A DNA stretch of 28,095 nucleotides from a virus (lineage: Duplodnaviria; Caudoviricetes): the IMG/VR virus record IMGVR_UViG_3300027707_001651, positions 1 to 28,095 of that record. The stretch is one strand, 5' to 3'. Of this stretch, positions 8,321-28,095 are shown piece by piece. The position numbers were made by a program, and so were the translations under genes. The number at the start of each line of letters is the position of its first letter. The stretch's first letter is position 1. The notes under the pieces are model-generated. The model had not been told where the DNA came from. It did no database searches and worked only from the letters and a program-made list of their open reading frames with translations.

Positions 8321-9203
8321 CGAGAGCGGAAGTGACGCCGCAAAGTGGTGGAACGAAAAGAGTCAAGAAGATCTTGACAAACTCGAATTCCTTCAAAAAG
8401 AAATGATGCGCGCCATGCGCGATAAAAACAAAATGGTACCCGGCGATGACGAAGAGGACATGGGTCCTCCAGACTTGCCAGAAGACGATGACGAAGACAT
8501 GGGTCCACCAGATATGCCAGAAGACGACGAAGACGGCGAATACGACGAAGACGAAATGGCACTTGAACCAACCGATCGAGAAATGGACATGCAGGATCGT
8601 ATGGCCTCTCGACGAGACATGGCAAGACGACGACCAAAGGCTCGTGGTCGTGCCGCAGGAATGATGAAATCGGGTGCTCCACGAGATGTAATGAGTAAAG
8701 CACTTAGGGCAGAAATGGAACTCAAGAGAGCGTTCTCACCAGAGAAGCGTCGTGACCTCGCACAACAAGGCATGGCACTTCCAGACGGATCGTTCCCAAT
8801 CGTTACATCAACTGACCTCAAAAATGCAATCATGGCTTTTGGTAGAGCGAAGAATAAGAGTGCTGCAAAGCGCCACATCATTAAGCGAGCAAGGGCACTC
8901 AAGAAAGTAAACCTGATTCCAGAAAACTGGGCTACGAAAGATGCCAAGGGTCATGGAATGTCTATGGGTCCAATGAGTGACCCAATGATGCCGATGCCAA
9001 AGAAAAAGAAAAAGATGCGCTACGGCGAAAAAGAAGCAGACATGGCAGAGATGGAAGATGACGAAATGACGTCACCAATGAGCCGTGAAGAACTGATGGC
9101 AAGAATTTTCAAGAAAAAGAAAAAGAAGCCAGGCATGCACAAAATGCCTGACGGCTCCATGATGGCAGACGAAGATATGCCAGAAGACGAAGCCGAATAC
9201 TAA
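8304..9203 (+). CDS. Met/Asp/Glu/Lys-rich low-complexity protein with one small conserved phage domain (DUF6582-like; possibly head-associated)
   Basis: 299 aa. Repeats DDEDMGPPD(L/M)PE and a globular stretch ALPDGSFPIVTSTDLKNAIMAFGRAKNKSAAKRHIIKRARAL...IPENW. SD GGAGAAGG. The family name is recalled, not verified. Confidence 0.75.
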   Translation: MTRPSDESGSDAAKWWNEKSQEDLDKLEFLQKEMMRAMRDKNKMVPGDDEEDMGPPDLPEDDDEDMGPPDMPEDDEDGEYDEDEMALEPTDREMDMQDRMASRRDMARRRPKARGRAAGMMKSGAPRDVMSKALRAEMELKRAFSPEKRRDLAQQGMALPDGSFPIVTSTDLKNAIMAFGRAKNKSAAKRHIIKRARALKKVNLIPENWATKDAKGHGMSMGPMSDPMMPMPKKKKKMRYGEKEADMAEMEDDEMTSPMSREELMARIFKKKKKKPGMHKMPDGSMMADEDMPEDEAEY

Positions 9204-9232: not shown

Positions 9233-11002
9233 GTGGCAACCAATCGCAAAGATGTTTATTCAGGCATGGTCACTGGACCAGTTGCGGGTTTTAGTCGGGT
9301 CAGTCGAGAGAAGGACATCGTGACACCCCCGATGCGTAGTGGCCCTAAAAAGAAAAACCGTACTTACACGAAACCCAAACGAGCCACTAGTTCAAGTTGG
9401 CCAGAAGTTGAAAAAACCAAGAGTTTGGGTATGTCTGATTTGAAACAAAAATCATTTGAGCGGTCACTTCAAAAAAGACTTGACTCAATTGACGACGATG
9501 TTCTTGATGTGTTGTTCCCAGAAGGAAGCACCAAGTCTATCGACAAGTTTGTTGCTGGCTTAGACGAGAAGTGGCTATTTGATGGCATCGGTGGATACAT
9601 CCGTAGAGCACTTAAAAACCGACGACGTAGCAAAAGAAAAGCAAGAAAAGCAAAATCCGACTTTGGTTCACAAATCGTCACCAAGGCAAAAACTGGACCG
9701 TGTTGGGCTGGATACGAACAAATCGGAATGAAAAAAGGCAAGGGTGGGAAAATGGTTCCCAACTGCGTTCCAATTGGCAAGAAGTCTCTTGATGGGCCAA
9801 GATTACGCGATCCCAAGGGTGGTCTTACCGCCGCCGGTCGCGCGCACTTCAAACGCACCGAGGGTTCAAACCTCAAACCTGGCGTTAAGGGTGCCGCAGA
9901 CACACCAGAGAAAATGAGACGCAAAGGTTCGTTCCTCACAAGGTTCTTTACTAATCCATCAGGTCCAATGGTGGGGGATAATGGCAAACCAACACGCCTT
10001 GCCCTTTCGGCGGCCGCATGGGGTGAGCCTGTGCCAAAGAATAGATCCGATGCCGCAAAACTGGCAGCCAAAGGCCGCAGACTATTAGAGCGCTACGAGA
10101 ACACAAAGAAGAAAGACGACTTTTTTTCACTAGAAGAAAAACAACTACCAGGACAGACGGTAGGTCAGCAGAGTGGTGGAAGTATCGGAGGAAGTAGCTC
10201 CACAGATGCCATTGACCATGACGGCGACGGAATGATCAATGACGGAACCCCAGAGGAAACAAGAGCTCCCTACAAACGCTCAAGCGATTCCGGATACGAG
10301 AAGCAAAGAAGAAAGTTTGTACGAGAACAACTCAGAAGGCAAGGGATACAAGCTCATAGAAGAGTTTCGGATAGAAGCAAAGAAGAAAGAGACGCCCGCG
10401 CAAGAGCTAGGGCCGCTTATGACAAAGTCCTAAGAGATGGACAGGGCAAGCCTGTTGCTGATGGACTACCGAAGGGGCCAAAGTATCCGCCAGGCCAGTC
10501 TGTTCCGAAGAATTATCCACCCGGTCAAAAGCCTCCATATAAAAAACCAGAAAAGCCGCGCGACCAAAAGCCAGCCGATAGATACCCAAACCCTGAAAAG
10601 AAATATCCACCAGGCCAGAAACCTTCAGCACCAAAGCCATCCGACAGAAAGCCGGCTGACAGGTACCCAAACCCAACGCGTCCAGATAGAAAACCAGCAG
10701 ATAGATACCCAGAACCAGCGCGTCCAATACGCCCGGAAGATGGCGTAAATAACAGACCAAAGCCAAGTCCTAGGAGTCCTTCTGCAACGAGACCTGGTGC
10801 TGACCGCTCTGAGCCACGAACCGGTCCTTCGGCGACGCGCCCTGGGGCTGACCGTTCCGAGCCAAGACAATCGGACAGAAAGCCTGCCGACAGATACCCA
10901 GACGCGCCACGTGGGATTCGTCCTGGCGATGGCATTAATAATAGACCAAAGCCTTCAGTTCCAAAGAGAACACCAGGCAACAACGGATTACGCAGGTCCT
11001 AA
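9233..11002 (+). CDS. modular basic phage protein (CWxGY...VPNCVP motif, DUF6321-like domain, DxDGDG motif, Pro/Arg-rich repeat tail)
   Basis: 589 aa. Contains GPCWAGYEQIGMKKGKGGKMVPNCVP, DPKGGLTAAGRAHF...NLKPGV...RKGSFLTRF and DAIDHDGDGMINDGTP, then C-terminal repeats. Confidence 0.8.
   Translation: MATNRKDVYSGMVTGPVAGFSRVSREKDIVTPPMRSGPKKKNRTYTKPKRATSSSWPEVEKTKSLGMSDLKQKSFERSLQKRLDSIDDDVLDVLFPEGSTKSIDKFVAGLDEKWLFDGIGGYIRRALKNRRRSKRKARKAKSDFGSQIVTKAKTGPCWAGYEQIGMKKGKGGKMVPNCVPIGKKSLDGPRLRDPKGGLTAAGRAHFKRTEGSNLKPGVKGAADTPEKMRRKGSFLTRFFTNPSGPMVGDNGKPTRLALSAAAWGEPVPKNRSDAAKLAAKGRRLLERYENTKKKDDFFSLEEKQLPGQTVGQQSGGSIGGSSSTDAIDHDGDGMINDGTPEETRAPYKRSSDSGYEKQRRKFVREQLRRQGIQAHRRVSDRSKEERDARARARAAYDKVLRDGQGKPVADGLPKGPKYPPGQSVPKNYPPGQKPPYKKPEKPRDQKPADRYPNPEKKYPPGQKPSAPKPSDRKPADRYPNPTRPDRKPADRYPEPARPIRPEDGVNNRPKPSPRSPSATRPGADRSEPRTGPSATRPGADRSEPRQSDRKPADRYPDAPRGIRPGDGINNRPKPSVPKRTPGNNGLRRS
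10480..10960 (+). repeat. intragenic peptide repeats: KPADRYP x4, YPPGQ x3, SATRPGADRSEPR x2, RP(E/G)DG(V/I)NNRPKPS x2
   Basis: Read directly from the 9233..11002 translation. Confidence 0.85.
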
Positions 11003-13226: not shown

Positions 13227-13304
13227 GTCTGACAGTATCGCACATTTATTATAAATTATCAGATAGTTTTATCTGGAAATTGGTCACAGTGTTAGTATTT
13301 GGAG

Positions 13305-14558
13305 ATGATAAGAACTGGTAACTGTATAGATTTGATGTCGGAATTAGCCGACAACTCAATAGATGCAGTGGTTACTGACCCACCCTATGAACTTGGTTTC
13401 ATGGGGAAGAGTTGGGATGCGAGCGGAATTGCCTACAACACCGAGGTATGGAGACAGTGCCTGCGAATACTAAAACCGGGCGGACACCTCTTGGCTTTTG
13501 GTGGTTCACGAACATATCACCGTCTCGCTTGCGCTATCGAAGATGCTGGATTTGATATTCGTGATCAAATTATGTGGGTTTATGGATCTGGGTTTCCGAA
13601 GTCAATGAATATCGGTAAAGCAATAGATAAAGCATCAGGCGCTACACGCAATGTTGTTGGAGTTGGGAAATCTGGAAAGAACAGAAATGTCTTGAATGCC
13701 GCAAACTACCCAGACACATTTGGTGGGGACTACGAGATAACCGAGGCCGCAACACAGGAAGCCAAGCAATGGGAAGGCTGGGGAACAGCCCTAAAGCCTG
13801 CTCACGAACCAATAGTCGTTGCTCGCAAAGCAGTCGATGGAACAATCGCCCAGAATGTAATGACATGGGGAACAGGCGGAATAAATATTGACGACTGTAG
13901 GGTCGCTTTTGTGTCTGAAAATGACAAAATTGAAAGCACCACAAAGAATCAGCATGAAGATTTTGGGACAAAGCCAATGACTGATAACACCGTTTATGGT
14001 GATTACTCAATGATGAAACCAAACAATTACAACCCTCCTGGGAGATGGCCAGCAAACTTTATTCACGACGGCAGCGATGAGGTGTTGGATCTATTCCCGA
14101 ACAGCAAGGGTGGTGCGTATCCGTCTAAGCGGGGACAAGCCGTAGCAACATCCTTTGCATCAGGGCAAGAGACCGAGGGTGGATTTAGGAAAATGGGAGA
14201 CGATGGTTCGGCTGCTCGGTTCTTTTACTGCGCAAAGCCGTCAACAGCAGAAAGAAATGCTGGACTTGATGGATTGCAAAAAAAGAAGGCAGACACCAGA
14301 AGTGATGTAGCCGCTGGAATGTGGAAAGACAAAAATGCTGCTCACCAGAATCACCATCCAACGGTAAAGCCGATCACGCTCATGCGTTATCTCATAAAAT
14401 TGGTTGTACCACCAAACGGAATAGTTCTTGACCCTTTTCTAGGCTCTGGCACCACGGGGGTAGCAGCCATTCAAGAAAACATTAACTGGCTTGGCTTTGA
14501 GATGAACCCAGAATACGCCGATATCGCCCGTAGGAGAACTGGACATGCTAGTTTCTAG
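13305..14558 (+). CDS. beta-class N6-adenine/N4-cytosine DNA methyltransferase
   Basis: VTDPPY near the N-terminus, HHPTVKP and LDPFLGSGTT near the C-terminus. Start is either ATG 13305 or TTG 13299. Confidence 0.93.
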   Translation: MIRTGNCIDLMSELADNSIDAVVTDPPYELGFMGKSWDASGIAYNTEVWRQCLRILKPGGHLLAFGGSRTYHRLACAIEDAGFDIRDQIMWVYGSGFPKSMNIGKAIDKASGATRNVVGVGKSGKNRNVLNAANYPDTFGGDYEITEAATQEAKQWEGWGTALKPAHEPIVVARKAVDGTIAQNVMTWGTGGINIDDCRVAFVSENDKIESTTKNQHEDFGTKPMTDNTVYGDYSMMKPNNYNPPGRWPANFIHDGSDEVLDLFPNSKGGAYPSKRGQAVATSFASGQETEGGFRKMGDDGSAARFFYCAKPSTAERNAGLDGLQKKKADTRSDVAAGMWKDKNAAHQNHHPTVKPITLMRYLIKLVVPPNGIVLDPFLGSGTTGVAAIQENINWLGFEMNPEYADIARRRTGHASF

Positions 14559-14560
14559 TC

Positions 14561-15847
14561 ATGTTGTATGTTGATAATTGCATAGACGCAATCTCACGGC
14601 TTCCTGACGAGAGTATTGACTCAATAGTTACCGATCCACCATATGAACTTGGCTTTATGGGCAAGGCGTGGGATTCAACAGGAATTGCATACAGCGTTGA
14701 ACTGTGGCGCCAGTGCCTTCGTGTTCTCAAACCAGGTGGTCATCTGCTCTCCTTTGGGGGTTCACGCACCTATCACCGTATGGCGTGTGCTATCGAGGAT
14801 GCCGGGTTCCAGATTCGTGACCAAATTATGTGGGTGTATGGGTCAGGGTTTCCTAAGTCGTTGAATATCAGTAAGGCGATAGACAAGGCTGCTGGTGTTG
14901 AGCGTGAAGTAGTTGGATACACAGACCCACACGACCCACGAACTGCTATGGCTCGCTCAATCTATGGAGGTGATATTCAGGAAGGTGCAGGTATTGGCAA
15001 TCCAATTACTGCCCCTTCTACGGCTGAGGCTAAAGAGTGGGATGGTTGGGGAACTGCACTTAAGCCTGCACATGAACCTATTGTTTTGGCTCGTAAGCCG
15101 TTAGATGGAACGGTTGCCAACAATGTTTTGACGCACGGTGTTGGTGGTATCAACATTGACGGATGCAGAGTCGCCCACCAATCAGAAGCAGATAGAGCGA
15201 GTGCAACACCTCAAGGGAAAGTGACCAGCAACAAAATGGCTGGCTCTGCACCTGACGTTGATGATGCAGGGAGGGTTGATGTTGACAGACCCGACACAGC
15301 ACTTGGTCGTTTCCCTGCGAACTTTATTCATGACGGATCAGACGAAGTATTGGAATTGTTTCCCAACACCAAGGGTGGCACTTGGAACACCACCAAGGGT
15401 GCAAGACCATTCAATAACAACGGCGAACCAACCGGCTACACAAGCACTGGTTCAGATAAATCTATTGGCTCAGCAGCAAGGTTTTTTTATTGTGCGAAAG
15501 CATCACGTAGTGAACGCAACGAAGGACTTGAGGACTTTGAGCCCAAGCGAGAATCTGACCGTATTGCCACCGATGGTGTAGGTGGAGAGAATCCACGCAA
15601 CCGCACCAATGCAGCAAAAGCGAATCATCACCCGACCGTAAAACCAGTCGCATTGATGCGTCACCTCGTCAAACTTATTACCCCACTAGGTGGGACAGTC
15701 CTTGATCCGTTCATGGGTTCTGGTACTACGGCAGTTGCGGCGACACTAGATGGATTCAATTGGGTTGGATGCGAGATGAATACGGAATACGTCGAGATAA
15801 TCAACGCAAGAGTGAGAAACGCCCAAAAAACCGCGAACAATGAATAG
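14561..15847 (+). CDS. beta-class N6-adenine/N4-cytosine DNA methyltransferase (paralog of the upstream gene)
   Basis: VTDPPY, HHPTVKP and LDPFMGSGTT; conserved blocks are nearly identical to 13305..14558. Confidence 0.93.
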   Translation: MLYVDNCIDAISRLPDESIDSIVTDPPYELGFMGKAWDSTGIAYSVELWRQCLRVLKPGGHLLSFGGSRTYHRMACAIEDAGFQIRDQIMWVYGSGFPKSLNISKAIDKAAGVEREVVGYTDPHDPRTAMARSIYGGDIQEGAGIGNPITAPSTAEAKEWDGWGTALKPAHEPIVLARKPLDGTVANNVLTHGVGGINIDGCRVAHQSEADRASATPQGKVTSNKMAGSAPDVDDAGRVDVDRPDTALGRFPANFIHDGSDEVLELFPNTKGGTWNTTKGARPFNNNGEPTGYTSTGSDKSIGSAARFFYCAKASRSERNEGLEDFEPKRESDRIATDGVGGENPRNRTNAAKANHHPTVKPVALMRHLVKLITPLGGTVLDPFMGSGTTAVAATLDGFNWVGCEMNTEYVEIINARVRNAQKTANNE

Positions 15848-16670
15848 ACAAACCACACTGATACGGGGTGTCAATATTGGTGATGTGCCACCGACCCCAA
15901 TGGGCGAATTTGAAGAATCGCCATTTTTTGCAAAGACTCGCAAGGTGTTTATTAGTCAAGCAAAAACCTATGGCTTCCCAATAAGTTTCAGCCAAGAACA
16001 AAAAGGTTCCCTTATACAGAACATCTACCCAAAGAAGACGATGGAAGAAATGCAGATTTCGTCCTCGTCAAAGGTAGAACTCGGACTACACACCGAAACG
16101 GCTTTCCATCGCTTTCGCCCAACAGCAGTCCTCTTGCTGTGCTTGAGAGGTGACTCAAATGCCGCAACAACCTATGCCCATTCCGATGACATCTGTGCCA
16201 AGTTGAAGCCGGCAACACTGGCTACCCTCACGAGGATGTGGTTCACCACATCTTTGGATGACAGTTTCAGAATGAACGGCGAAGAGGATGTAAAAATCAC
16301 GTGCTCGATACTCAATGAAACACCGAGGGAAACATACCCGTCTCCGCGCTTGTTTGACATCTGTTATGACGAAGCTCTTATGACCGGAACCAATGGTCAG
16401 GCGGTGGATGCCCTAGAAGAATTGCGGGAAGCAATCAAATCAAGCATTCAGACAGTAGTTCTTGAGGAAGGGGATCTACTAGTGCTGAATAACAGAACAA
16501 CGATCCACGGCAGGCTCCCATTTGAGCCACGCTACGACGGAACAGATAGATGGTTGCAACGAATGCTGGTCACTGACACAATGCCACCAGATAACTACAT
16601 CAGAATGTACGAGGAACACGCAGAGATAACTTCTCTAGGGGTTCGGTCACTAACAGGTGACATCAGTTAG
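15840..16670 (+). CDS. Fe(II)/2-oxoglutarate oxygenase, clavaminate synthase/AsnO/VioC-like (TauD superfamily)
   Basis: LHTETAFH (HxE facial triad), LLLCLR and NNRTTIHGR...PRYDGTDRWLQR. Confidence 0.88.
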   Translation: MNRQTTLIRGVNIGDVPPTPMGEFEESPFFAKTRKVFISQAKTYGFPISFSQEQKGSLIQNIYPKKTMEEMQISSSSKVELGLHTETAFHRFRPTAVLLLCLRGDSNAATTYAHSDDICAKLKPATLATLTRMWFTTSLDDSFRMNGEEDVKITCSILNETPRETYPSPRLFDICYDEALMTGTNGQAVDALEELREAIKSSIQTVVLEEGDLLVLNNRTTIHGRLPFEPRYDGTDRWLQRMLVTDTMPPDNYIRMYEEHAEITSLGVRSLTGDIS

Positions 16671-16679
16671 TATTCCCAC

Positions 16680-17132
16680 ATGCGAAGAAGTTCAAAAATT
16701 GAAAAGAACCCCCTACACAAGCATTTGATGGCCAATGGGATTACCAATACCCCTCCAACCTCAAAACGCGAACTGAAGAAGTGGCTTCGCCAACTTGTCC
16801 ACGACATAGGAATGCATCGAATCGGCGGCCCATTCGTTAAATATGTCAAAGCCCCAGGCAATAAGGGTCTCACAGCAGTCGTAATGATTGAGACTTCACA
16901 CATAGCGCTTCACATATGGGAAGAAGGAGAACAGCCGTACTTCCGTTTTGACCTTTACACCTGCGGTCCACTACAACACAAAGAAGTTGTTGAGTTAGTA
17001 GCAAAGTTTATGGACTCACCCAAGATGGAGTGGTGTGTATACGACCGTGAGAATGGGTTTGAGGAATACGACTTTGGAATATGGCCTGAGCACCAATCCA
17101 CTGTTCAGATAAATCAAACCGCTACTGCTTGA
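16680..17132 (+). CDS. speD: pyruvoyl-dependent S-adenosylmethionine decarboxylase-like proenzyme
   Basis: GLTAVVMIETSHIALHIW (self-cleavage Ser-His motif) and FDLYTCG. Confidence 0.85.
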   Translation: MRRSSKIEKNPLHKHLMANGITNTPPTSKRELKKWLRQLVHDIGMHRIGGPFVKYVKAPGNKGLTAVVMIETSHIALHIWEEGEQPYFRFDLYTCGPLQHKEVVELVAKFMDSPKMEWCVYDRENGFEEYDFGIWPEHQSTVQINQTATA

Positions 17133-17216
17133 CCTCATTTATTGTCACATGTCCCCCCACACCCACCCGGTCGTTCCCGTAAGTCCCGATAAACACTTCC
17201 TATTCCAAACGAAAAA

Positions 17217-17280
17217 CGAACACACGTTCGCCCTTCGGGTAGACCGAACACACGTTCGCCCTTGACCAAACACTTGTTCG
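17217..17280. promoter_or_regulatory. three LexA/SOS-box-like sites
   Basis: CGAAC-ACAC-GTTCG at 17217-17230 and 17245-17258, and CAAAC-ACTT-GTTCG at 17267-17280. These match the CGAAC-N4-GTTCG Gram-positive/actinobacterial consensus (the third has one mismatch). Confidence 0.65.
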
Positions 17281-17331
17281 CTTGATCGACTTGACCACAC
17301 AGTTCGCAATCGTTCACAGTTCGCACGACTT

Positions 17332-17468
17332 GCAAATACACCCCCCCAATGGTTTTGATAAATGACCACAACGGTTTCACAAACGGCAGGCAATGGTTTC
17401 GCCAACACCCCCAATGGCAAACACACCCCCCGATGGCTTTGATAAATGACCCCCGATGGTTTCACAAA
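17332..17468. repeat. imperfect direct repeat of about 52 bp, two copies
   Basis: GCAAAYACACCCCCC..ATGGYTTTGATAAATGACC....YGGTTTCACAAA at 17332-17383 and 17417-17468. Confidence 0.8.
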
Positions 17469-17469
17469 A

Positions 17470-18420
17470 CGACAGTTCGTTAGTTCGTCAGCTCACACAA
17501 CAAAGTTCGTACTAAGTTCGTTCGTTGTAATCGTGATAGATACTCACACAGTAATCACACACACAGTAATCGCATACATAAATAAGTTCGTAGTGTTATC
17601 ACAAACGCTAACACAGTTTCAGTAATCACACACAATAGTTCGTCATACACAACGAACACTTTGTCATACACAATCGTTGATAAACAAATCACTTAGTAGT
17701 ACGACACACACATACATAAGTCGCACTAATAACTCACACCATAGTAGGTAGTAGTATCGCAGTAGTATCGTGGTAGTACCCCAGTAGTACTATGCCTATG
17801 TCGCACACATAGGTAGTCGCACTCACCCATACCTTGCCCACTCTCTCGCAGTATGAAGTTCGCAGCACGTACGGGTGGCACTACGGGTATCCATACAACA
17901 CTGATACCAAAGTGATACCACCCCCTACCTACCCATACATACATACCAATACATACACACACCCCTACCTACCCACACCCCACACATACACACACATACA
18001 TACTTATCTACCTACCCCCCCTTACCTACCTACCTACCTACCTACCCACTACCTACCTGCTACCTACCCCCCTACCCATACACCCCACATACACCTCACA
18101 TACACATACCCCACCTAGTAGTACTACCCCAGTACTACCTCAGTAGTATCCCAGTAGTAGTACCACAGTAGGTATCAGTACCTCAGTGAGTATCCACACC
18201 CCCACTGAGTACCACCCCAGATACCTAGTATCAGTCAGTAGTGGGTATCCGATTAGATACATACCCCCTCACACACACTCTCTCTCGCACTACTTTTCAC
18301 ACACCCCATACACCCCTTCTTACACACCCCCTACACCACAGTCAGTAGTAGGTATCAGGGTACATACACAAACAAATCCCAGCACTAACACCACAGAGCA
18401 ACTAATCGTGCCAAAATGGA
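17470..18420. repeat. strand-skewed low-complexity non-coding region (AGTTCG, CAGTAGTA, TACC/CACA tracts)
   Basis: Repeated AGTTCG/GTAGTA words. About 17920-18115 is almost G-free on the + strand, with (TACC)n and CATACA runs. Confidence 0.8.
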
Positions 18421-18426
18421 TAGGAC

Positions 18427-21400
18427 ATGTCGCTCATAGAGAACAAATCGCTTATTCGTGCCGAACAGGAACAGTTCGTCAGGGCAGTATCCGTTGTATC
18501 CACACAGATACACACGAAGGCACAACTAGGGGCAGTAGTACAGTCCTTTGACCCCAACGCAATAGACGGTGACGGCGACGGCATAGTACAAGACGGTTCG
18601 CCCTTTGAGAGACCAGCAGTAATCAGTGCTATCAGTAAAGCCTCACAACGGTTGGGACAGATACTTAGTAAAGCGAAACAAACAAAACAGGGTAGGGCAA
18701 AAGAGTACAACCGTAGATACAACGGTATGTCAGCGAAGGACATAGCAGCAGATGTCGTACCCGACAGTTTTGATAGTTGGGTCGCCAAACAGTATGAGGT
18801 ATTGAGACTAGAACGACCCGACTTACCAGCACTCACAGACGACGTAACACCACAGCAAGCAAAAGAGATAGCTCGTGCCTTAGAGGACTTCGTAGAACCC
18901 GATCTCGTATGGATGCTTTCACAAGACGACGCAGACAAATACAAAGAACTAAAAAAAACAGATAGAAACGCAGCCCTTCGTTTTCTCACCGAAGGGGCTT
19001 TTGACTTTTCACCACAAGCAGTCGCCAAAAACAGACGACTCATAGAACACACACTTACCACCAACCCACAGTTCAGAGAACTCGTGAATAGGTTTGGTAT
19101 GCCAACACTCACCATGTACGGACCAAACATGACTAAGGATCACATGGCAGCAGGTTTCTTTTCCGAAAGGAACGGCATCTCACTAAGCTCGTATCGCAAT
19201 CCAACTTCATCTGGAAAGGTATTCTCGGCAGTTTCTCGTAAATTAGGTAACTGGTTTATGACTGGCATAATGACCCCAGACGTCGGAAGCAAGGACACAA
19301 AAAGGTGGTTAGTACGAGAGGGAAGTCCAGAATCACTACTCGTACACGAGTACGGACACTACTTATCAGACATGATTGGACGCACACTGCCCGAAGATGA
19401 GAAATGGGACAGAAGTAGTGGTAAAGCAATGGCTTGGCGCTTCTCGTACGGTTCTGACTGGAAAGAAACGTTTGAAGCCGTCGGTTGGCCGGAAGCGTAT
19501 GATGAGTACAGTCTTCCGCTCGTAGATGGCACAGACGTCAACGCTCGCAGCAGAAAAAAGCGCGACAGACGAGAAGTTCCGTCAAACATACCCCACATAC
19601 TCACTGGTTATGGTGAGTCATCGCCCAGTGAGGCTTGGGCCGAGTCAATTTCTGCCATCATCGCACACGGCGGCGAAGATAAAGACCTTGTTAGCGAAGG
19701 TATGACGTGGCTAATCAGAGATGCCCTTGACCTTCCTGACAACGACATACGAGAATCACTCACCCCCAAAAGAGCCACACGAGAGATTATTCCAGACGGT
19801 TTCGCCTCACGTGGTGCAACAGTTCAGATCAACAACGAAAAAGACCCTCGCTTTGGTGAAATAACTGACCCGTACGAACTCACAGCAGAGGTTCTGGGAA
19901 CACTTGACGGCGATGACCCGGTTGGCAAGATGGTTCGACGTCTACAAGAGATGAAAGACGATCCTGAACAGTACGGCCGCTTGGTTCAGGCCGGCAATGC
20001 AGATTCCGTTGATGTCCCATTGAACATACGCGCCGCCAACGAAGCAGAAGCAGCGCTACTGGCCGAAGTTCTTATCACAGACCCGGCGTTCGCTGACATG
20101 ATTCGACGTCACGGCATACCTAACTTCTACTTCAGTCAAACAGACCTCAAACTCAAAGGCGATTTTGACGTACGAGGAATTCTCTCAGGTGGTTACGTCG
20201 CAGACGACAGTCCTAACGGGAAGTTCTACCCAGCACGAATAGTGATTGACCTTATCGGCGCTCCACACGAGCGTCAATCACCAGACACACCGTTTGAGCC
20301 AGACAGCCGGGCCGATGTTCAGGAGTACTCAAAAGGCAGAGCACCCGGCAATATCACCCGGAAGTTTGTATCCCGCAGCGACAAGCACGTCATTCGACAC
20401 GAAGGTGGACACGGAGTGCTTGACCAACTGTGGGAAAGGCAATACGAAGGCAAGATCAAGGGCCGAAGGGCGCAACTCATCCGTGCGTACAGCAAACCAA
20501 CGTGGGAAGAGTTCTACAAAGAGCTTGGTCGGCCTGACCTGTGGGCTGAACACCAGAGAGCACTGAGAGCAACGTATCCGAGCCAACAAGGAACAGTCGA
20601 GCGTGCTATTCGACGAGTGATACCCGGCAATCCGAACATATCTGACGAAGTACAACAAGTCGATAGTGCGTACGCATGGTCGAACCCGAAAGAGATGTTC
20701 GCAGAAGGTTTCTCGGCGTACACGTCCTCAAACCCGGCGTTCAGGGGCCTGCTCAACGACACGATGCTTGACCATCTCCAATCGATACTCGGCGATGCTG
20801 ATACAGACATACCAGAGCCGCCGTCAATGCCAGAAAGTCGGGACTTAGACGTAGACGCACCAGAGCCGCCAGCGTGGGATGGTTTCGCATCTACGGGTGC
20901 ACCTATCACGTCGTACAGCGACTTGCGTAGCGACAGGATGTCTAGTCCAAGCGGCAACGGTACGTTCACACGTAGAGAGTTATTTGAGAACACCACCACA
21001 GAACAGAAGCTTGACCTAGCAGTCCCAACAAACGAAAGAGATTGGGCTCTCATGGCTTGGGATGAGCGGCTTGCAGAGATGGGTGTCACTTGGGATGACG
21101 TGAAAAGAATTGACCTTTCAGATCCATTCAAGCCAAAAATACCCAAAGACTTAAGAGAAGGCAAGGAATTTATCCGATACGTAGGCCTTCAGTTGAAACT
21201 AAATACTCCTGACTTTTCACCAGAAAACATACAAGCAAATCGAGAAGCCCTTCGCGCTGCACTTGACGGCACTCCTCGATTCCGTTCTGCAGTGGAACGA
21301 CACGGACTGCCGCCAATCGCAACGATGACCAATCAGACAGCAGAACGTTTGTCCATACTTGGCGTAATGGATCAATGGGTGAAGCGATCCAAGGCCGGCG

Positions 21401-24400
21401 AAAAAATAAATCCTGAAATCCTTGACATCCTCCCGGCATACATCAAATGGAAACAAAAAGACACAATTGAAGCAGAACGAACGGGGCAATGGAATCTATT
21501 CCGACAGTCGCCAGAGGGCATAAAGGCACATCAACTTTCCGAACACTTCAAAGTTATGGGTGGCTACAGTACGGCCGAAAATACAATCATTCTTGCTCCG
21601 AGCCAATTGGACAAGTGGAGGAACGGGACTCGACTTGACCACCAACATTCACCAGAAGCAGGTGATTGGTTAATCGCTGACAACTCAGTTGAAAGCATTC
21701 TGTTACACGAATTTTCCCATCACATTGACTACTCTCAAAGCAAAAACAGAGGATCACGTGCTGACAACTCCTCATTTGCTTCAACTCTTGAAGGCAACAG
21801 ACTATTCGCTGAAGTCGATAAGCACATCAAGACTAGGTATGGACGTACCCAAAGAAGCGAGTTCGCAGCCGAAAGCATTGCCGCCGTGTTATCTGGCAGC
21901 CGCGATCAAGAAGAGATGCTCAGCCCAGAAGCCCGGCGATGGGCTAGAAGTATGGCCGGATTGCCAGAGAATGACCCGGTATTCACTGGCCGCACACGCA
22001 CACAAGATGATCTAGTGACTCGTTATGACCAGTTCGGCCATAGGTGGACAAAACTTGACGGAGGCGATTGGAAGGCCCCTTTTTACGTGTCCCGCAGCCG
22101 CGATGGTGTTCCAGACGTTATTGAATCTATGGCCGAGGCTAAGGAACGAACGGGATTGACGAACTTTGAACCAGTCGTATTCGAGCACGATGGCCGCACG
22201 TTCACCACCCGGCAAGTCAATGACACGTTCTCAATCGAAATAAACGGCAGAACTGTGGCCACTGCAAACGTTGTCGAGAATCAATACGGAATGCCAGAAA
22301 TACAAAACGTTGATGTGTTGCCGGGTTACACGGGTGTAGCAGCAGACAAAGACCTCCATGAGATGGTTGTTGATCACGCCCGGAAGAAGTATCCAAGCGC
22401 GCTTGCGCCCAGAGGAACACCATTGCGCGTGAGGCAGGCCGCGATCCATCAAGACGGCTTTGCTTCAGTAGGCCCGGAACATCACGACGCACGTCAAATT
22501 GACGGGACTGCTGGCACACCAGAGTACGCACAGGCCGTAGCTGGAGAGTTTGAGGCCGCACAAGCAAATGGAAAGAAAGTGTTCTTTGATTACAACGGTG
22601 AGACCAGAGAAGTCGAAGTAACTGAAGTGTTCACAAAGAACGGCATTCTCTACATGAGGGGCAACGACGCTCTTCGTAATGGTGAGGAACGTATGTTCAG
22701 GCTTGATCGAGTATCAATGCCTAAGCGTGTCGAGAACCCGGATACAGGGGCCGCTGAAGTCGTCAAGAAGCCCGGCAAACCACCACGCAAGCCAGTCCCG
22801 GTATTCACGGGTAAGGCAGCAGAACTGTTTGAGGGCGCTGCTTCATGGGAGGAAGTAGCAGCACGCTTAGGCAAAGGCCGCTACGTGTTCTTTGACTTTG
22901 AGACAACGGGTATCGAGGAAGATGAGTTCGGCGGCATGAAGCATCCCGGTACACCAACGCAGATCGGCCTTACCGAAATTGTCGACGGCAAGATCACCCG
23001 GCAATGGTCAACGCACGTCAATCCGGGTAGGCCGCTGTCTATCGATCCAAAAACAGGCCGCTCGTGGTCAGCTGACAATCTGAAGTACAAAGACCCAGAC
23101 ACGGGTGAACTGGTGAACATTAGCGACGAGTGGTTGGCTCAACAGAAGCAGTTATCAGAAGCTCTTGACGAGATGCTTGAGTTCATTGGGCCTATCGAAG
23201 ACACGATACTTGGCGGCCAGAACCACCCTTACGACGATGACGTAATGAAGCGCGCAATGGCAGACGCGGGTCTTGACCCGGCAAGATGGAATCCAGGCGG
23301 CTTCATTGACAGTCAAGCTCTTGCTCAGGCGCTGCTCGACAAGAGCAGTGATGACTATCCAAAGAACGAGAAAGGCACCAAGACTGTTTCTCTTGGTTAT
23401 CTGGCTACGTTCTTGGGCCACGACATGGGTGAGGGCTGGCACTCAGCTGATGCGGATGCTGAAGCATCGTACGAATCATTCAAGCGGCTGATCGACCGCG
23501 CTGCGCTGCACGAGAACTCTGGGAAGCCAGTCAGACGGGACTTGTTCGCTCCCGGTGGCGCGCTGAAGGAACACCAAGAGCGGCTCGATGATTACGAACG
23601 TCAGGTGCGCGGCTATGACTACAAGGTAAAGAGGTACAAAGAACAGGCTGCGGCTGCTACAGAAAGCCCGGCAACAGAAGGTTTCGCATCACGTGGGGCC
23701 AAAAAGATACTTGACTTGGTTAAGGAACGCCGCCGCGCCAAAGACCCAACAGCTTGGAAAAACCTTAAGGAAAAAGAAAAGCAACGTTTAACAAAAGAAT
23801 CTGCCGATAGAGCCATCTTTATGATCAACGAGCTGTCGGATCTTGGTTATGATGCCGAATCACTGAAGAAGATGAACCGCGCAGATCTTGATGGTGTATT
23901 TCTTGACCTATTCCCAGATGGCAGTGTCCGTGTTTCTGACTCCGTCACGGCAAATGATGCGCCGCTCGTTCAGGTCAACAGCGCAACGATGGGCAAGGTG
24001 TTCATGGCTCTGGGCTTCCACGTGGAAGTTGTAAGCAGTGATCCAAATGAGAAATTCATTCTAGAAAATGGCATCAACGACATGCAGAAAGCCCTGCAAG
24101 ATTACGTTGCAGCAGCCGCCTCAGACCCGGCAAGACTAAAGTTTGATGCAGTATTCAAAAATTGGGCAGCCAATGTCAAAGACGCTAACGGCGATCCAAA
24201 ACCGATCGACGTTTCCACGCTTGGTACAGAAGGCGGCATGAGTTACGCAGACGCAGCCAAGCTGTTCGCTGAAACTTTTGAGATTAACCTGTGCCTCTAT
24301 TACACAACTGGCGTCAACATGCTCTGCGGCTCAAACATCGGTATTGAGCGCGTAGAAATGCCACAAGTTAGCGGCCGCTCAATGGGCGACGACACATACG

Positions 24401-27400
24401 CAACACGCTCAATAAAAGCGGGACTAGCGGCAGCCAAAGAGATAGCCATTGACAAGAAAAAACTGGCAGAACTCAAAGATCGTGACCCGGAATTACATGC
24501 ACGGGTCTTGGAGCTACTTGACAAAGAAGCACTCGCAAAACTTGGCAAAGATGGAAAACCAGACCCAAAGTTTGAAATCAAGAACGCTGCAGCCCTTGAG
24601 GAAGTCAGGAAGTTGGCCCAAGCAAAAGACCCACTGGCAAAGGCTTTGTTTGATGTAATGAATTGGAACAACACAGAAGCCGATGCAGTCCCAATAATGG
24701 ATCGGGCAGCAAAGGCACTCGGAATCAACGTCGGCGAGACTGAATTCAAAGACCCAACAACATTGCTTGGTGCGCAGAACGAGCTGCAGGGATCAAAAGT
24801 CGAGGGCATGGCAGATGGCGCAGTTGCGGCCGTACTTGAAGCACTGGAGATACTTAGGGCTCGATTCAATGGACGTGAGCCAACTCAAGACCAACTCATG
24901 GACTATCTTGCCAACGAAATAAAGCACGGCCTGTTTCAGCCCGTACTCACTGCGGGTAACGAAGGCATGCAGAGGTACTTGGTAGACGGACACCATCGTT
25001 GGGCAGGACTGATAGTAGCCAACAAGAAGCTCAAAGAAATGGGACTTGACGTACAAGTTCTACTCAACACCAAGAACTATGAAACAGACATACGTAGCGC
25101 TCTGGAGATTGGAAAAGTAGTCCAAACCTTCATAGGTATCAAGGATGCCAAGCTCTCTGGTGAAGATAAGTTTGTACCCGACCCCAATGTCCCAGAACTC
25201 ACAGCAAAAGAATTTGATGCTGCTATTGAGGCTTTAATAGATCAAGCCAATCTCATTAAGGAGATGGACTTACTTAAGGCAGAAAAAAAATATCGAAAGA
25301 AGGCGCAGTACGGCACAGAGCTTGACGTTGAGGCTGCCCCACAATCCGGGCTGATTCCAAAGAGAAAATTACCCCTGTCAGAAGCCGTACAAATGGCGAT
25401 AGGACAGAACGCCACTCTTGAGCCACAGTCCCGTGTTACCGGAGTGAAGCCGCAATCAACCGGCTACCGGGCTCTTGACTCTGGAATGAAGTGGACCTCA
25501 GTCGAGGACCATGTGCAAATCGAGACAGATCGCGGCAATCCACTGTTTGATACATACAAAGAATACGTTGACGGGGGCTACGAAGTTGCATGGGTGACTC
25601 ATGATGCGAAAGAAGCAGGCCGCTACGCCATCAGCGCCGATCAAGTCAACGCATTTGATCGAGATGAAATCAGCGTTGACCCGGCAAACATTGGTGAAGT
25701 TGATCTTGCGGGTGCAGAACTGGTTGGCAAAGATGATGAAGGCGGCTTCCTCTACGCCCGGAAAAAGCCAACGAAAGCCACCCGGCAACGTATCGAAACG
25801 CTGAAGAGTGAGGAAGAGTACCTCGACGGCTTTGCATCAATGAGCAGCTACCCGGAAGATCGAGATGGCCGAACGAGACCCGGCGACCGCTATCCATTTG
25901 ATGTCAGGCCGTCCGTATTCGACAAGGAAACCTTGGACAACATCTCAATGGACATCACTGCCCAAGAAGCAGACAATGTACTCAACAATAGCCCTTCATT
26001 CACGTTAGACGAACGTGACATCAAGAAAGTGGAAGCGGCCATCAAGAGACTTGAGGGCATGGGTGAACGCGGCAAAAAGAGGGCAGCCAAACTCAGACGG
26101 GACTTAGAGAGAAGGAAGAAAAACGACGAGCAATGGCTTGAGCGAATGCGAAGAGATATGGACTATAAGCCCGTCCAACCATACGTTGGAAAACCCGGCG
26201 ATAAGCCCGGTAAATTCCCGAGTGGCTCATCATTCCCCCAAGACGAACCAGATTGGCTTGACGGGCCAGAAGATTGGCTTGACGAACCCGGTGATTACGA
26301 CGGCTTTGCCTCTACGGGTGAAGACGATGGCTTTACGGGTGAAGTTGTTCTTGACATTGTTGCTGGTGGTCCTCATACATTTGACTCAGATCAACGTCGC
26401 GGCCCAGAGCTACGCGATCGAGAAGTGGTTGCAGACGATTGGAAAACCCGGCAACAGAAGCGCATCGCCGGCGTTCGAGTTCCGGAAAGGGCGGTTGACG
26501 AGAATGGTGCACCAAAGCCGGGTGCACCTATTTATCGAGAAACCGTAAAAATCGGCCGTAAGCAGTACACGTTTGAGGTGGACTCTGATGGCATTGTGAG
26601 CGTTTATACGGGACGAAACTACAAGCAGGTAGCACAACTGAACCTTGATCGCGGCCACTCTATGGAAGGTTCTCGTCGATCAGAGAATCCGAGTCGACAC
26701 TTCATTGACATGGTGATGGTTGATCGCAAGCACCGACGTAAAGGAATAGCCACATACATGGCCGAGATGGCCGAATATGCCTACGGCGGCAAGGTGGAAC
26801 ACTCGACTGCATTGACTTCACTTGGGAAAAAGTGGCGCGATGCTGATGTCGAGAAGCGCGGCGCGACTGCACTCCCGCTGCCCAAAGACTTTGACCCAGA
26901 TGCACCAGTTCTAAGTTGGACACCCGGCGATACACCGCCTGCATGGGCTTGGTGGGACAGCAATGGAAACACCACTGATGGCTTTGCTTCAATGGGTGAG
27001 GCCACCATACCGAAGCCCTCAAAAATGCCGAAGAATGAACGTGAGTACTGGGAAAAACTGTACCCAGACAGAACCGAGGAGGAGTGGAAAGCAATTCGGG
27101 AAGAAATAATCCGGGAAAGTTCTCAGATAATGCGAGAGGGAGGTATTTATGGCACCAATGGCGAGCCTAAATCAACCGTCTCTAATCGGGGAGGTATTTA
27201 TGGCCCCGACACCACCATTTTTGATGCCGAAAAAGCGGAAGAAATACAAAAAAAACTTCAAGAGGCTCTCAAAGGGTTGCAGGAAAAAATAACAGAGACC
27301 AAGAAACCGAAGGATAATACCTACCTAGGCAGATCACGTGAAATCATCGGGACTGTAGAGAAGCGCACTGCAAAAGCCCAAGAAAGAGTTATCAACCTAG

Positions 27401-28095
27401 AGAAGGCACTTGATGTTCTGGAAAAAACAGGGGAGTGGAGGGGTGAAGAGTTCGGTGTCACCCTAGACGAGCACTCCAGAGCAAGTTTTGATTTGAATGA
27501 GTTTGATGAAGGCACGGGAATAAACCTCACTGCCGAAGAAGTGAAGGCTAAACCTGATTTCATAAGCAAGGTTAGAGCGAGGCTCGAATATGCCAAAGAT
27601 GAGCAACGTCTACAAGAAGCCAAAACACTGGCAAAGAAAAAACGTGCTGAACAAAACACTGTAGACATAGAAGACCTGACACCAGAGCAATACGAAAGAT
27701 TCAAGAAGTTGGGCGAGGAAGTTCAGGCCGCTAAAAAGAGGGGAGAAACCACCGACTTAGGTGGTTCTGTTGTTCACGTTGGTCAGTCAGAATTGGATGG
27801 TGGGGTGCTTGACCCAAACAAAACCCGTTCGACTGCGACAGATGAGGGTAACACTGGTGGATTGAACATCAAAGCAGTGGAGCGTTTTGAAAAAGATCTA
27901 AAAGAACAACGTGAGCTGCGCGACGGATATTCAGAGCTCATTGAAGCAATAAAGAGCGGCAAGAAAACATTCAGACCCAAGACCGATGTTGTAGCAAGTT
28001 GGCTAAGTGGCTTGATGGGCAAGGATTTTGACGTATATTCCGATTTTGATTTGTCAGCAGTGTCGGAAAGGCACAGTGCGATGGTGGCTGCGTTA
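18427..28095 (+). CDS. giant polyvalent protein/polyprotein (>=3223 aa, 3'-truncated): 3x zincin, WYL, DEDDh exonuclease, ParB-like, possible ART-like, GNAT
   Basis: Frame +1 was translated manually from the ATG at 18427 (in-frame TAG at 18421, GGA/AGGA upstream), with no stop to the window end. Motifs: HEYGH 19345, HEGGH 20398, HEFSH 21706, RMFRLDRV about 22690, DFETTG 22894, DGHHRW 24985, HRRKGIA about 26731. Confidence 0.93.
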   Translation, partial: MSLIENKSLIRAEQEQFVRAVSVVSTQIHTKAQLGAVVQSFDPNAIDGDGDGIVQDGSPFERPAVISAISKASQRLGQILSKAKQTKQGRAKEYNRRYNGMSAKDIAADVVPDSFDSWVAKQYEVLRLERPDLPALTDDVTPQQAKEIARALEDFVEPDLVWMLSQDDADKYKELKKTDRNAALRFLTEGAFDFSPQAVAKNRRLIEHTLTTNPQFRELVNRFGMPTLTMYGPNMTKDHMAAGFFSERNGISLSSYRNPTSSGKVFSAVSRKLGNWFMTGIMTPDVGSKDTKRWLVREGSPESLLVHEYGHYLSDMIGRTLPEDEKWDRSSGKAMAWRFSYGSDWKETFEAVGWPEAYDEYSLPLVDGTDVNARSRKKRDRREVPSNIPHILTGYGESSPSEAWAESISAIIAHGGEDKDLVSEGMTWLIRDALDLPDNDIRESLTPKRATREIIPDGFASRGATVQINNEKDPRFGEITDPYELTAEVLGTLDGDDPVGKMVRRLQEMKDDPEQYGRLVQAGNADSVDVPLNIRAANEAEAALLAEVLITDPAFADMIRRHGIPNFYFSQTDLKLKGDFDVRGILSGGYVADDSPNGKFYPARIVIDLIGAPHERQSPDTPFEPDSRADVQEYSKGRAPGNITRKFVSRSDKHVIRHEGGHGVLDQLWERQYEGKIKGRRAQLIRAYSKPTWEEFYKELGRPDLWAEHQRALRATYPSQQGTVERAIRRVIPGNPNISDEVQQVDSAYAWSNPKEMFAEGFSAYTSSNPAFRGLLNDTMLDHLQSILGDADTDIPEPPSMPESRDLDVDAPEPPAWDGFASTGAPITSYSDLRSDRMSSPSGNGTFTRRELFENTTTEQKLDLAVPTNERDWALMAWDERLAEMGVTWDDVKRIDLSDPFKPKIPKDLREGKEFIRYVGLQLKLNTPDFSPENIQANREALRAALDGTPRFRSAVERHGLPPIATMTNQTAERLSILGVMDQWVKRSKAGEKINPEILDILPAYIKWKQKDTIEAERTGQWNLFRQSPEGIKAHQLSEHFKVMGGYSTAENTIILAPSQLDKWRNGTRLDHQHSPEAGDWLIADNSVESILLHEFSHHIDYSQSKNRGSRADNSSFASTLEGNRLFAEVDKHIKTRYGRTQRSEFAAESIAAVLSGSRDQEEMLSPEARRWARSMAGLPENDPVFTGRTRTQDDLVTRYDQFGHRWTKLDGGDWKAPFYVSRSRDGVPDVIESMAEAKERTGLTNFEPVVFEHDGRTFTTRQVNDTFSIEINGRTVATANVVENQYGMPEIQNVDVLPGYTGVAADKDLHEMVVDHARKKYPSALAPRGTPLRVRQAAIHQDGFASVGPEHHDARQIDGTAGTPEYAQAVAGEFEAAQANGKKVFFDYNGETREVEVTEVFTKNGILYMRGNDALRNGEERMFRLDRVSMPKRVENPDTGAAEVVKKPGKPPRKPVPVFTGKAAELFEGAASWEEVAARLGKGRYVFFDFETTGIEEDEFGGMKHPGTPTQIGLTEIVDGKITRQWSTHVNPGRPLSIDPKTGRSWSADNLKYKDPDTGELVNISDEWLAQQKQLSEALDEMLEFIGPIEDTILGGQNHPYDDDVMKRAMADAGLDPARWNPGGFIDSQALAQALLDKSSDDYPKNEKGTKTVSLGYLATFLGHDMGEGWHSADADAEASYESFKRLIDRAALHENSGKPVRRDLFAPGGALKEHQERLDDYERQVRGYDYKVKRYKEQAAAATESPATEGFASRGAKKILDLVKERRRAKDPTAWKNLKEKEKQRLTKESADRAIFMINELSDLGYDAESLKKMNRADLDGVFLDLFPDGSVRVSDSVTANDAPLVQVNSATMGKVFMALGFHVEVVSSDPNEKFILENGINDMQKALQDYVAAAASDPARLKFDAVFKNWAANVKDANGDPKPIDVSTLGTEGGMSYADAAKLFAETFEINLCLYYTTGVNMLCGSNIGIERVEMPQVSGRSMGDDTYATRSIKAGLAAAKEIAIDKKKLAELKDRDPELHARVLELLDKEALAKLGKDGKPDPKFEIKNAAALEEVRKLAQAKDPLAKALFDVMNWNNTEADAVPIMDRAAKALGINVGETEFKDPTTLLGAQNELQGSKVEGMADGAVAAVLEALEILRARFNGREPTQDQLMDYLANEIKHGLFQPVLTAGNEGMQRYLVDGHHRWAGLIVANKKLKEMGLDVQVLLNTKNYETDIRSALEIGKVVQTFIGIKDAKLSGEDKFVPDPNVPELTAKEFDAAIEALIDQANLIKEMDLLKAEKKYRKKAQYGTELDVEAAPQSGLIPKRKLPLSEAVQMAIGQNATLEPQSRVTGVKPQSTGYRALDSGMKWTSVEDHVQIETDRGNPLFDTYKEYVDGGYEVAWVTHDAKEAGRYAISADQVNAFDRDEISVDPANIGEVDLAGAELVGKDDEGGFLYARKKPTKATRQRIETLKSEEEYLDGFASMSSYPEDRDGRTRPGDRYPFDVRPSVFDKETLDNISMDITAQEADNVLNNSPSFTLDERDIKKVEAAIKRLEGMGERGKKRAAKLRRDLERRKKNDEQWLERMRRDMDYKPVQPYVGKPGDKPGKFPSGSSFPQDEPDWLDGPEDWLDEPGDYDGFASTGEDDGFTGEVVLDIVAGGPHTFDSDQRRGPELRDREVVADDWKTRQQKRIAGVRVPERAVDENGAPKPGAPIYRETVKIGRKQYTFEVDSDGIVSVYTGRNYKQVAQLNLDRGHSMEGSRRSENPSRHFIDMVMVDRKHRRKGIATYMAEMAEYAYGGKVEHSTALTSLGKKWRDADVEKRGATALPLPKDFDPDAPVLSWTPGDTPPAWAWWDSNGNTTDGFASMGEATIPKPSKMPKNEREYWEKLYPDRTEEEWKAIREEIIRESSQIMREGGIYGTNGEPKSTVSNRGGIYGPDTTIFDAEKAEEIQKKLQEALKGLQEKITETKKPKDNTYLGRSREIIGTVEKRTAKAQERVINLEKALDVLEKTGEWRGEEFGVTLDEHSRASFDLNEFDEGTGINLTAEEVKAKPDFISKVRARLEYAKDEQRLQEAKTLAKKKRAEQNTVDIEDLTPEQYERFKKLGEEVQAAKKRGETTDLGGSVVHVGQSELDGGVLDPNKTRSTATDEGNTGGLNIKAVERFEKDLKEQRELRDGYSELIEAIKSGKKTFRPKTDVVASWLSGLMGKDFDVYSDFDLSAVSERHSAMVAAL
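22549..22715 (+). other. WYL-like domain within the giant protein
   Basis: AAQANGKKVFFDYNGETREVEVTEVFTKNGILYMRGNDALRNGEERMFRLDRV. Confidence 0.75.
22882..23490 (+). other. DEDDh 3'-5' exonuclease (DnaQ-like) domain within the giant protein
   Basis: ExoI YVFFDFETTG, ExoII GGQNHPYD, FIDS, and ExoIII WHSADAD. Confidence 0.88.
24283..25080 (+). other. ParB/sulfiredoxin-like domain within the giant protein
   Basis: GIERVEMPQ...LLGAQNELQGSKVEGM...PVLT...YLVDGHHRWAG. Confidence 0.75.
26530..26840 (+). other. GNAT acetyltransferase domain within the giant protein
   Basis: Motif A FIDMVMVDRKHRRKGIATYM, followed by HSTALTSLGKKW. Confidence 0.78.

Follow-up and report, generated by a model that had tools for sequence, protein, structure and literature searches.

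Ever since Iyer et al. (2017; PMC5512222) proposed that MPTases process phage polyvalent proteins, be it ahead of packaging, within the head or following injection, the question has stood of whether such proteins are cut, at which sites and by what protease. It arises again with a 28,095-nucleotide stretch of viral DNA (Caudoviricetes; IMG/VR record IMGVR_UViG_3300027707_001651; the whole stretch is referred to here as the window), in which a single open frame on the + strand, 18427-28095, runs for 3223 codons and is open at its 3' end. Its product, the giant protein considered here, has an exact full-length match of 3999 aa (P0002), in which modules of different kinds are separated by copies of a short motif, [DE]GFASx[GS], here called the tag; there are seven copies in the window portion and nine in P0002 (those beyond the window being GDGFASRG at aa 3404 and EPGFASRG at aa 3527), delimiting ten segments. 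The initial annotation, made from the letters of the window, had reported a frame of at least 3223 codons and had read the seven copies, written in differing synonymous codons, as sites at which an internal zincin or a head protease might release separate effectors, or else as docking or packaging tags. The frame, the copies and their codon usage have all been verified. The cleavage reading stands in part: the tag lies at module boundaries and is most likely a cleavage site, to judge from structure prediction, conservation, shuffling and co-variation, whereas both of the proposed readers need revising.

A peptide tag at the joints of exchangeable modules

None of the six frames of the window has GFAS at any other place, and its seven copies compare with 0.045 expected from composition; 500 shuffles yielded no 4-mer, whatever its sequence, in more than 5 copies. 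At the DNA level the tag copies are 73-85% alike over 20-22 nt, and their codon identity is 0.40 versus 0.33 expected (p=0.12). Because codon identity is not above chance, the tag in the giant is constrained as a peptide, as had been claimed at the outset; a pure DNA repeat was also considered as its nature, and was rejected on the codon and DNA-level comparisons. A related proposal, in which module shuffling by DNA recombination at a short microhomology has left the tag behind as a neutral scar, draws on the serine codon, which is TCN in 7/7 window copies, and on three other tag-carrying proteins, in which the codons of the copies are more alike than chance. From the latter it follows that recombination also spreads the tag; as a neutral scar, however, it is scarcely credible, given that third positions are free to vary in the window, that substitutions are conservative at the protein level, and that the tag of the tape measure (see below) changes in step at a fixed, unshuffled site.

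In AlphaFold2 models spanning aa 250-1449 and 1700-2899, made with alignments of 25-26 close homologues, all seven tag copies lie in coil stretches with a predicted local distance difference test score (pLDDT) below 50, a class comprising 154/1200 (13%) and 316/1200 (26%) of the residues of the two models. The last ~80 residues of the second alignment (A2) are mis-aligned to the C-terminal domain of the homologues, and the model near tag 7 is less reliable. The earlier placement of the copies in linkers, outside folded cores, is borne out by these models.

The tag is likewise conserved among relatives. Thirty-two homologues of the giant were found, 29 of which carry 4-9 GFAS each, 185 copies in total, the tag being kept in 29/29 of the close homologues; where GFAS is absent from a conserved joint, AFAS, GLAS, GFSS or GFPS usually occupies it. 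The three homologues without GFAS are P0031, P0032 and P0033. The first two have modules in common with the giant, with [AP]LGS at the joints and, in P0031, a different module order; P0033 has a G[RK][MI]G word instead. The tag-delimited segments cluster as recurring modules, the first five of which are constant and the later ones gained, lost or duplicated, and tags flank even segments of just 10-18 aa. A tag lies within 15 aa of 80 of 200 homology breakpoints, compared with 7% at random, the homologues not being independent of one another. The enrichment at module boundaries and the shuffling in homologues for which the initial annotation had suggested looking are both found, the latter as gain, loss, duplication and reordering. 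Thus, the tag marks the joints of swappable modules, and recombination of modules occurs there; a short conserved motif at the boundaries of autonomous modules is also one mark of a protease-processed viral polyprotein, the other being a demonstrated cut there by an identified protease.

One code on head cargo and tape measure, and its candidate reader

The tag is not confined to the giant. A complete 150,897-bp myovirus, G001, has homologues of 16/18 tested window ORFs (open reading frames), their order being nearly all kept, and a giant that is 57% identical. There, G[FL][AS]S is present in only 4 of 159 called ORFs, i.e. those for the giant (6 copies), a 4898-aa S78 prohead-protease polyprotein (19), a 1456-aa head-cluster zincin protein (2) and the tape measure (2). 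The 4898-aa protein (C1:44076-58769) has an N-terminal S78 protease (aa 1-170), a scaffold-like region and an anchor peptide, followed by some 20 modules set apart by tags, among them ArdC-N+MPTase, five KTSC stretches and DUF2958; its tags enclose whole families that stand alone elsewhere, namely ArdC-N+MPTase and DUF2958. G002 has tag carriers (2290 aa and 1098 aa) without HExxH.

In each of 10 genomes a private variant of the tag is common to the carriers: GFAS in G001 and G009, G[FL][AS]S in G002, GLAS in G008, GL[AR]S in G007, GLSSG in G010, [RK][LF]SSG in G014, GMRS in G015, STRS in G013 and [AP]LGS in G006. The N terminus of the tape measure bears the local variant in 7/8 tagged genomes having a tape measure (e.g. 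STRS in G013 and KFSSG in G014), and serine is the sole residue invariant across lineages. The tape measures of the tag-less G011 and G012 have no match to the stricter pattern; loose patterns give scattered single matches in these two genomes, their tape measures included. Because the private variants span several genes of each genome, the tape measure included, one trans-acting reader per phage is the simplest, and a likely, account of these sequences. In G013 (C1:42584-53934) ORF calling gives the S78 protease (460 aa) and a tagged cargo of 3322 aa as separate neighbours instead of one ORF, an arrangement that may reflect a split gene, read-through or an assembly error.

The S78 prohead protease is an obvious candidate for such a reader, since it is universal and heads the largest tagged polyprotein. 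It would cut hydrophobic-x|Ser in head maturation, in the way that herpesvirus assemblin cuts Ala|Ser and that head cargo is processed by T4 gp21 or SPN3US gp245. A serine at P1' agrees with the cut at K103/S104 of the HK97 capsid protein, as described in the text of PMC10275583, and with the P1' Ser preference given for SPN3US in that of PMC10052503, and Arg-Ser variants of the tag exist. The S78 catalytic strands (VW[GA]H, EWSIGYKT and ELYExSPVLHGAN) are, however, identical in all tag classes and in tag-less phages, i.e. they are invariant while the tag drifts or disappears; motif-specific substitutions were sought in these strands and none was found. The capsid protein, the canonical substrate, is without a tag in 14/14 genomes and has conserved FK[SAT]L and [VQT]KD Lys sites instead. 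Other head proteins, including the giant, have a Lys site ahead of a DxDGDG..PFERP anchor (K-[AS]-x-hydrophobic-G precedes the anchor in 25/29 homologues of the giant), whereas Lys precedes the serine of the tag in just 7/226 relaxed matches in carrier proteins. Since capsid and head proteins bear Lys sites while the tag is nearly without Lys, S78 has, as judged from these patterns, its own Lys signal, separate from the junction tag. The tag thus differs from an ordinary prohead-protease site in two respects, being absent from the capsid protein and not being limited to head proteins. Heads and tails assemble separately, and at no stage is the tape measure inside the prohead. Cutting of the tag by S78, the head protease originally proposed as a reader, is distinctly unlikely.

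The other reader originally proposed, one of the three zincins of the giant itself, acting by self-processing and then in trans, fares no better. All three retain HExxH with downstream Tyr/Glu, and MPTase self-processing is a published proposal (PMC5512222, main text). The tag is, however, also present on proteins without HExxH and on the tape measure, and neither the giant nor its three zincins has a homologue in G014 or G015, both complete tagged genomes; more weakly, AlphaFold2 left tags 1-3 undocked on the adjacent zincins. It is quite improbable that these zincins are the readers. A soluble cytoplasmic protease, i.e. a phage HslV-like peptidase or a host enzyme, would be able to reach the tape measure, and tblastn finds the HslV-like gene in 10/10 complete or long genomes. 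(Its absence from G012 and G015 in the ORF calls is an ORF-calling artefact, so that absence rules nothing out.) That gene is, however, equally present in the tag-less G011 and G012; cutting in the producer cell would detach the cargo from its head anchor before packaging; and the genome-private variants speak against a common host enzyme. A reader of this type must be regarded as very improbable.

A separately encoded zincin best fits the distribution of the tag across these sequences. This protein, termed ZnA, is a head-cluster zincin encoded outside the window, in the second gene after the protease polyprotein, and forms a single-copy clade across all tagged genomes; its HExxH is invariant, its Tyr and Glu are conserved, and in G001, where its module takes up about aa 229-594 of the 1456-aa protein, it is flanked by tags. 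Several hundred genomes are available, with 469 S78 matches and about 220 stretches bearing the ZnA anchor. Of 120 loci, 80 had flanks, giving 58 that are distinct around the N-terminal anchor, of which 52 were scored and 6 left out as too short. ZnA is present in 34/34 loci with four or more tags, and 9/9 counted loci without ZnA have no tag. The complete genomes G011 and G012 have S78 and HslV and lack ZnA, tagged giants and a tag at the N terminus of the tape measure. In a tree of the neighbouring gene, in which 51/52 loci were placed, the tag-less phages form one clade (support 1.0), except for L212, which has mixed degenerate tags; all ZnA losses, at least two, fall within this clade, where other cargo takes the place of the zincin. 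The pattern of loss fits relaxed selection on a putative reader after loss of the tag. The ZnA profile has no meaningful match among solved structures or in Pfam, and its Atlas matches are either below 0.9 or unnamed.

That the tag is cut by some protease is probable on this comparative evidence. That it is a cleavage tag read in trans by ZnA, in the virion or after ejection, is the preferred reading, to which a probability slightly below even may be given. In the proposed sequence of events, the giant would be packaged into the head via its N-terminal anchor, and its Lys-site leader would be trimmed by S78 as the capsid protein is; packaging and delivery with the DNA are suggested by the anchor and the Lys site common to head-cluster proteins. 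The tag would not be an S78 site and, without Lys, the cargo would stay attached through head maturation. The reader would act where head cargo and tape measure meet, i.e. in the finished virion or the newly infected cell: this timing is favoured because the tag is on both head cargo and tape measure, which are assembled separately, and earlier cytoplasmic cutting is disfavoured because the cargo would be parted from its anchor. ZnA would then cut the tags, possibly before the hydrophobic residue or before the invariant serine, so freeing the zincins, the WYL-DEDDh nuclease, the ParB-like domain and the GNATs as separate early effectors; the ArdC and KTSC modules would likewise be freed from the protease polyprotein.

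It may instead be that the tag is left uncut, as a docking or threading signal, or a serine modification site, for portal, tail-tube or chaperone handling, or for inner-capsid packing. The proteins that carry it are precisely those for which ejection is expected (head cargo and tape measure), the invariant serine could be modified, and MPTase-bearing polyvalent proteins are known to be delivered uncut. By contrast, a tag at every joint, even around segments of 10-18 aa, and tags enclosing families that stand alone elsewhere are predictions of polyprotein cleavage, and loss of ZnA follows loss of the tag. An uncut tag is thus considered rather unlikely.

Several points weigh against cleavage of the tag by ZnA. 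Cleavage at the tag is a prediction, no cut having been observed, and N4 virion RNA polymerase (vRNAP), ArdC and TraC1 are described in the main text of PMC5512222 as delivered uncut despite their MPTase domains; 42 head proteins of SPN3US likewise stay uncut (PMC10052503). The presence of ZnA in the phage of the window is presumed from G001. Nine loci keep ZnA without a repeated tag, the tag was not found in the G015 tape measure, and the association of ZnA with the tag goes back to few events, the tag having been lost about once and the zincin, subsequently, two or more times. All complete genomes examined, with or without tags, have S78 and the HslV-like peptidase, so their distribution is not discriminating; moreover, the invariant serine is well suited to the P1' position of proteases of the S78/assemblin type, and three variants, GMRS, GLRS and STRS, are similar to Lys/Arg-Ser sites. 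The codon likeness in three carriers, described above, belongs here too. Finally, no cultured phage with the system was found, tblastn searches with the first 1342 aa of the giant and with the ZnA protein giving no match among 50,697 GenBank phage records.

In its widest form the proposal is that a widespread clade of actinobacterial myoviruses, with genomes of 130-160 kb, uses two proteases in its virion programme. A Lys-specific prohead protease would serve the shell, and a co-packaged zincin would read a genome-private code on all ejected proteins, including the tape measure, cutting chains of 2,000-5,000 residues into dozens of anti-host effectors on entry, with the tag doubling as a recombination joint. 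This scheme is put forward tentatively, as somewhat short of even probability; if true, it would constitute a plug-and-play effector cassette, the modules of which are readable straight from sequence. As to the processing of polyvalent proteins, there is now a candidate site, a set of natural specificity variants (GFAS, xLGS, LSSG, GMRS and STRS) and a named candidate enzyme, testable without culturing the phage. The tag also gives the exact boundaries of many unnamed injected modules, and so candidates for the anti-defence effectors used by abundant uncultured phages; it may further provide a set of orthogonal site-specific proteases.

Modules of the giant and the surrounding locus

As Iyer et al. 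2017 use the term, the giant is a phage polyvalent protein, combining several unrelated enzymatic domains, HExxH zincins with a downstream Glu and a mosaic architecture among relatives. Its features within the window are collected in Table 1.

Table 1. Coordinates in the window of the giant protein gene, its N-terminal signals, segments and junction tags
Feature	Position	Strand	Basis
Giant polyvalent protein gene, 3' open	18427..28095	+	ORF scan and P0002 match
Lys-site leader junction HTK-AQLG, predicted S78 prohead-protease cut removing a short leader	18511..18531	+	Homologue comparison; HK97 K103/S104 analogy
Anchor DPxAxDGDGDGxVQDGSPFERP, common to other head-cluster proteins (PHROG 7924)	18547..18615	+	
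Segment 1: zincin 1, HEYGH at 19345, downstream Y..E..AE	18616..19794	+	
Junction tag 1, DGFASRG	19795..19815	+	
Segment 2: zincin 2, HEGGH at 20398	19816..20877	+	
Junction tag 2, DGFASTG	20878..20898	+	
Segment 3: zincin 3 (HEFSH at 21706) and small GNAT-like fold	20899..22452	+	
Junction tag 3, DGFASVG	22453..22473	+	
Segment 4: WYL and DEDDh exonuclease (DFETTG at 22894, WHSADAD at 23437)	22474..23676	+	
Junction tag 4, EGFASRG	23677..23697	+	
Segment 5: ParB/sulfiredoxin-like (DGHHR at 24985) and C-terminal module, about 25399-25824	23698..25824	+	
Junction tag 5, DGFASMS	25825..25845	+	
Segment 6: small basic helical module	25846..26298	+	
Junction tag 6, DGFASTG	26299..26319	+	
Segment 7: GNAT acetyltransferase fold (HRRKGIA at 26731)	26320..26976	+	
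Junction tag 7, DGFASMG	26977..26997	+	
Segment 8: module without named family; 552 aa in full protein	26998..28095	+	

The domains first annotated hold for the most part, i.e. the three zincins, WYL, DEDDh, ParB-like and GNAT, with less certainty for the degenerate GNAT and the ART-like module. Each of the three HExxH zincins has downstream Tyr/Glu residues (E..AE); none in the window has a Pfam MPTase-PolyVal match, and their fold matches, by Foldseek, are weak ones to LF/ATLF (lethal-factor)-like proteins. The WYL and DEDDh domains of segment 4 exceed the Pfam cut-off. The ParB/sulfiredoxin-like domain has a PHROG match (E 9e-6) and a structure match (Z 7.4, root mean square deviation (rmsd) 3.5, 86 aligned), and the GNAT of segment 7 a structure match (Z 8.6, rmsd 3.6, 119 aligned). 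The GNAT-like part of segment 3 has a weak Foldseek row (5i0c, E 0.42). The C-terminal module of segment 5, which carries its own tags in P0025 and P0027, gives Atlas values of 0.86-0.88 to clusters with PARP 16% or Arr and no Pfam, Foldseek or VIA row, its ART-like identity being a weak lead. Foldseek with both 1200-residue models gave no match at E<=0.001, a result that is not a sign of a novel fold, since multi-domain models weaken such searches.

Segment 6 has no match among the other 28 homologues. The first 35 aa of segment 8 recur between tags in P0031, and P0002 aa 2974-3399, also of segment 8, recur within the ZnA-bearing protein of G007. The small GNAT-like fold of segment 3 has a duplicate in the full protein, segment 9 (P0002 aa 3404-3559), which is 74% identical to a module of the G009 giant (G009 41352-47498), a protein otherwise about 31% identical; this likely reflects a recent exchange of modules between lineages bearing the same tag. 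At the C terminus, P0002 aa 3840-3999 form an extension that follows a Lys site (EKSLGQ) and another DGDGDG; the tag-less G011 has a separate protein of 424 aa to which this extension is 54% identical.

The N-terminal anchor is predicted to be a head-targeting or Ca-binding peptide. The form DxDGDGxVQDG[ST]P[FY]ERP (PHROG 7924) is also present in many phage proteins of 100-200 aa, often C-terminally (L002, L003, L006, L011, L020 and others), which makes it a candidate for a general capsid-binding or Ca-binding tag.

Upstream of the giant, the window encodes WhiB, a DUF932 protein, a primase-helicase, three DNA methylases and head-type proteins. WhiB is an established marker of an actinobacterial host. 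The host is likely to be among the Actinobacteria, because WhiB is in the window and, among cultured phages, those with the nearest S78 proteases infect Gordonia and Brevibacterium. The ORFs at 8304-9203 and 9233-11002 are of low complexity, each with several Lys-Ser/Ala sites, and the second has DUF6321 and an anchor-like peptide, DHDGDG..DGTPEETRAP; both likely encode head-associated proteins. The regions 5517-7721 and 13299-17132 encode one C5 and two N6/N4 DNA methylases, a TauD-like dioxygenase and an AdoMet decarboxylase, possibly a DNA-modification cluster. Directly upstream of the giant, about 1.3 kb (17133-18426) is without a credible gene, C/A-rich and G-poor (GC skew about -0.28), with direct repeats (19 nt x2, 26 nt x3 and 15 nt x3) and low-complexity runs; it is possibly an origin or regulatory region.

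Relation to known systems

The Gordonia phages DalanDe, GMA6 and Chidiebere and the Brevibacterium phage Cantare resemble the tagged phages in having an S78 that is 37-41% identical, a contractile tail and head-cluster HExxH proteins. By contrast, no repeated tag, anchor motif or ZnA match is present in the three regions examined from cultured actinobacterial myoviruses. Gene 27 of DalanDe (L337:16641-21542) encodes a 1633-aa 'capsid maturation protease' in which S78 follows a long N-terminal extension; no repeated tag was found in it.

Motif-directed prohead proteases include T4 gp21 and phiKZ gp175. As in the maturation by SPN3US gp245 at A-X-E set out in the text of PMC10052503, one short motif is present on many head or ejection proteins and would be read in trans. 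The SPN3US-type cuts described there mostly remove terminal propeptides, including those of capsid and portal; by contrast, the tag parts internal modules, is not in the capsid protein and is in the tape measure. There is a likeness also to HK97 S78/delta-domain cleavage (PMC10275583, as given in its text), in that the relatives encode S78 and an HK97-type capsid protein with Lys sites, and the giant has a Lys-site leader. Unlike in HK97, the junction tag is a second, separate signal, nearly always without Lys.

The closest counterparts are the polyvalent proteins of PMC5512222, likewise very large virion-associated chains that join MPTase, GNAT, ParB-like, ArdC-N and nuclease domains. The main text of that report describes no junction motif (the word 'linker' occurs in it 0 times; its supplement is not covered by this statement), whereas here the tag, private to each genome, is spread over several genes and the tape measure, and the best candidate reader is encoded by a separate gene. 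The assemblin-like protease is N-terminal here and, in the main text of the same report, C-terminal. Effectors fused to a capsid-processing peptidase are noted in a later survey (PMC9503650), and P1 is described as packing DarB via a short N-terminal signal (PMC9024508). Neither the motif nor a junction code in these phages was found described in the literature outside subscription journals and supplements, in agreement with the initial annotation; the GFAS, xLGS, GMRS and STRS lineages, the tag-less control genomes and the ZnA candidate are new here.

Polyproteins cut at Gly/Ala-small motifs by cysteine or serine proteases are well known from eukaryotic viruses, e.g. pp220/pp62 of African swine fever virus, the AG|X sites of poxviruses and the A|S sites of herpesvirus assemblin. 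The likeness to the tagged proteins is that several proteins are made as one chain with a short small-residue motif at which they are, or here would be, parted. By contrast, the viruses and their cargo are unrelated, and the enzyme predicted to do the cutting in the phages is a zincin.

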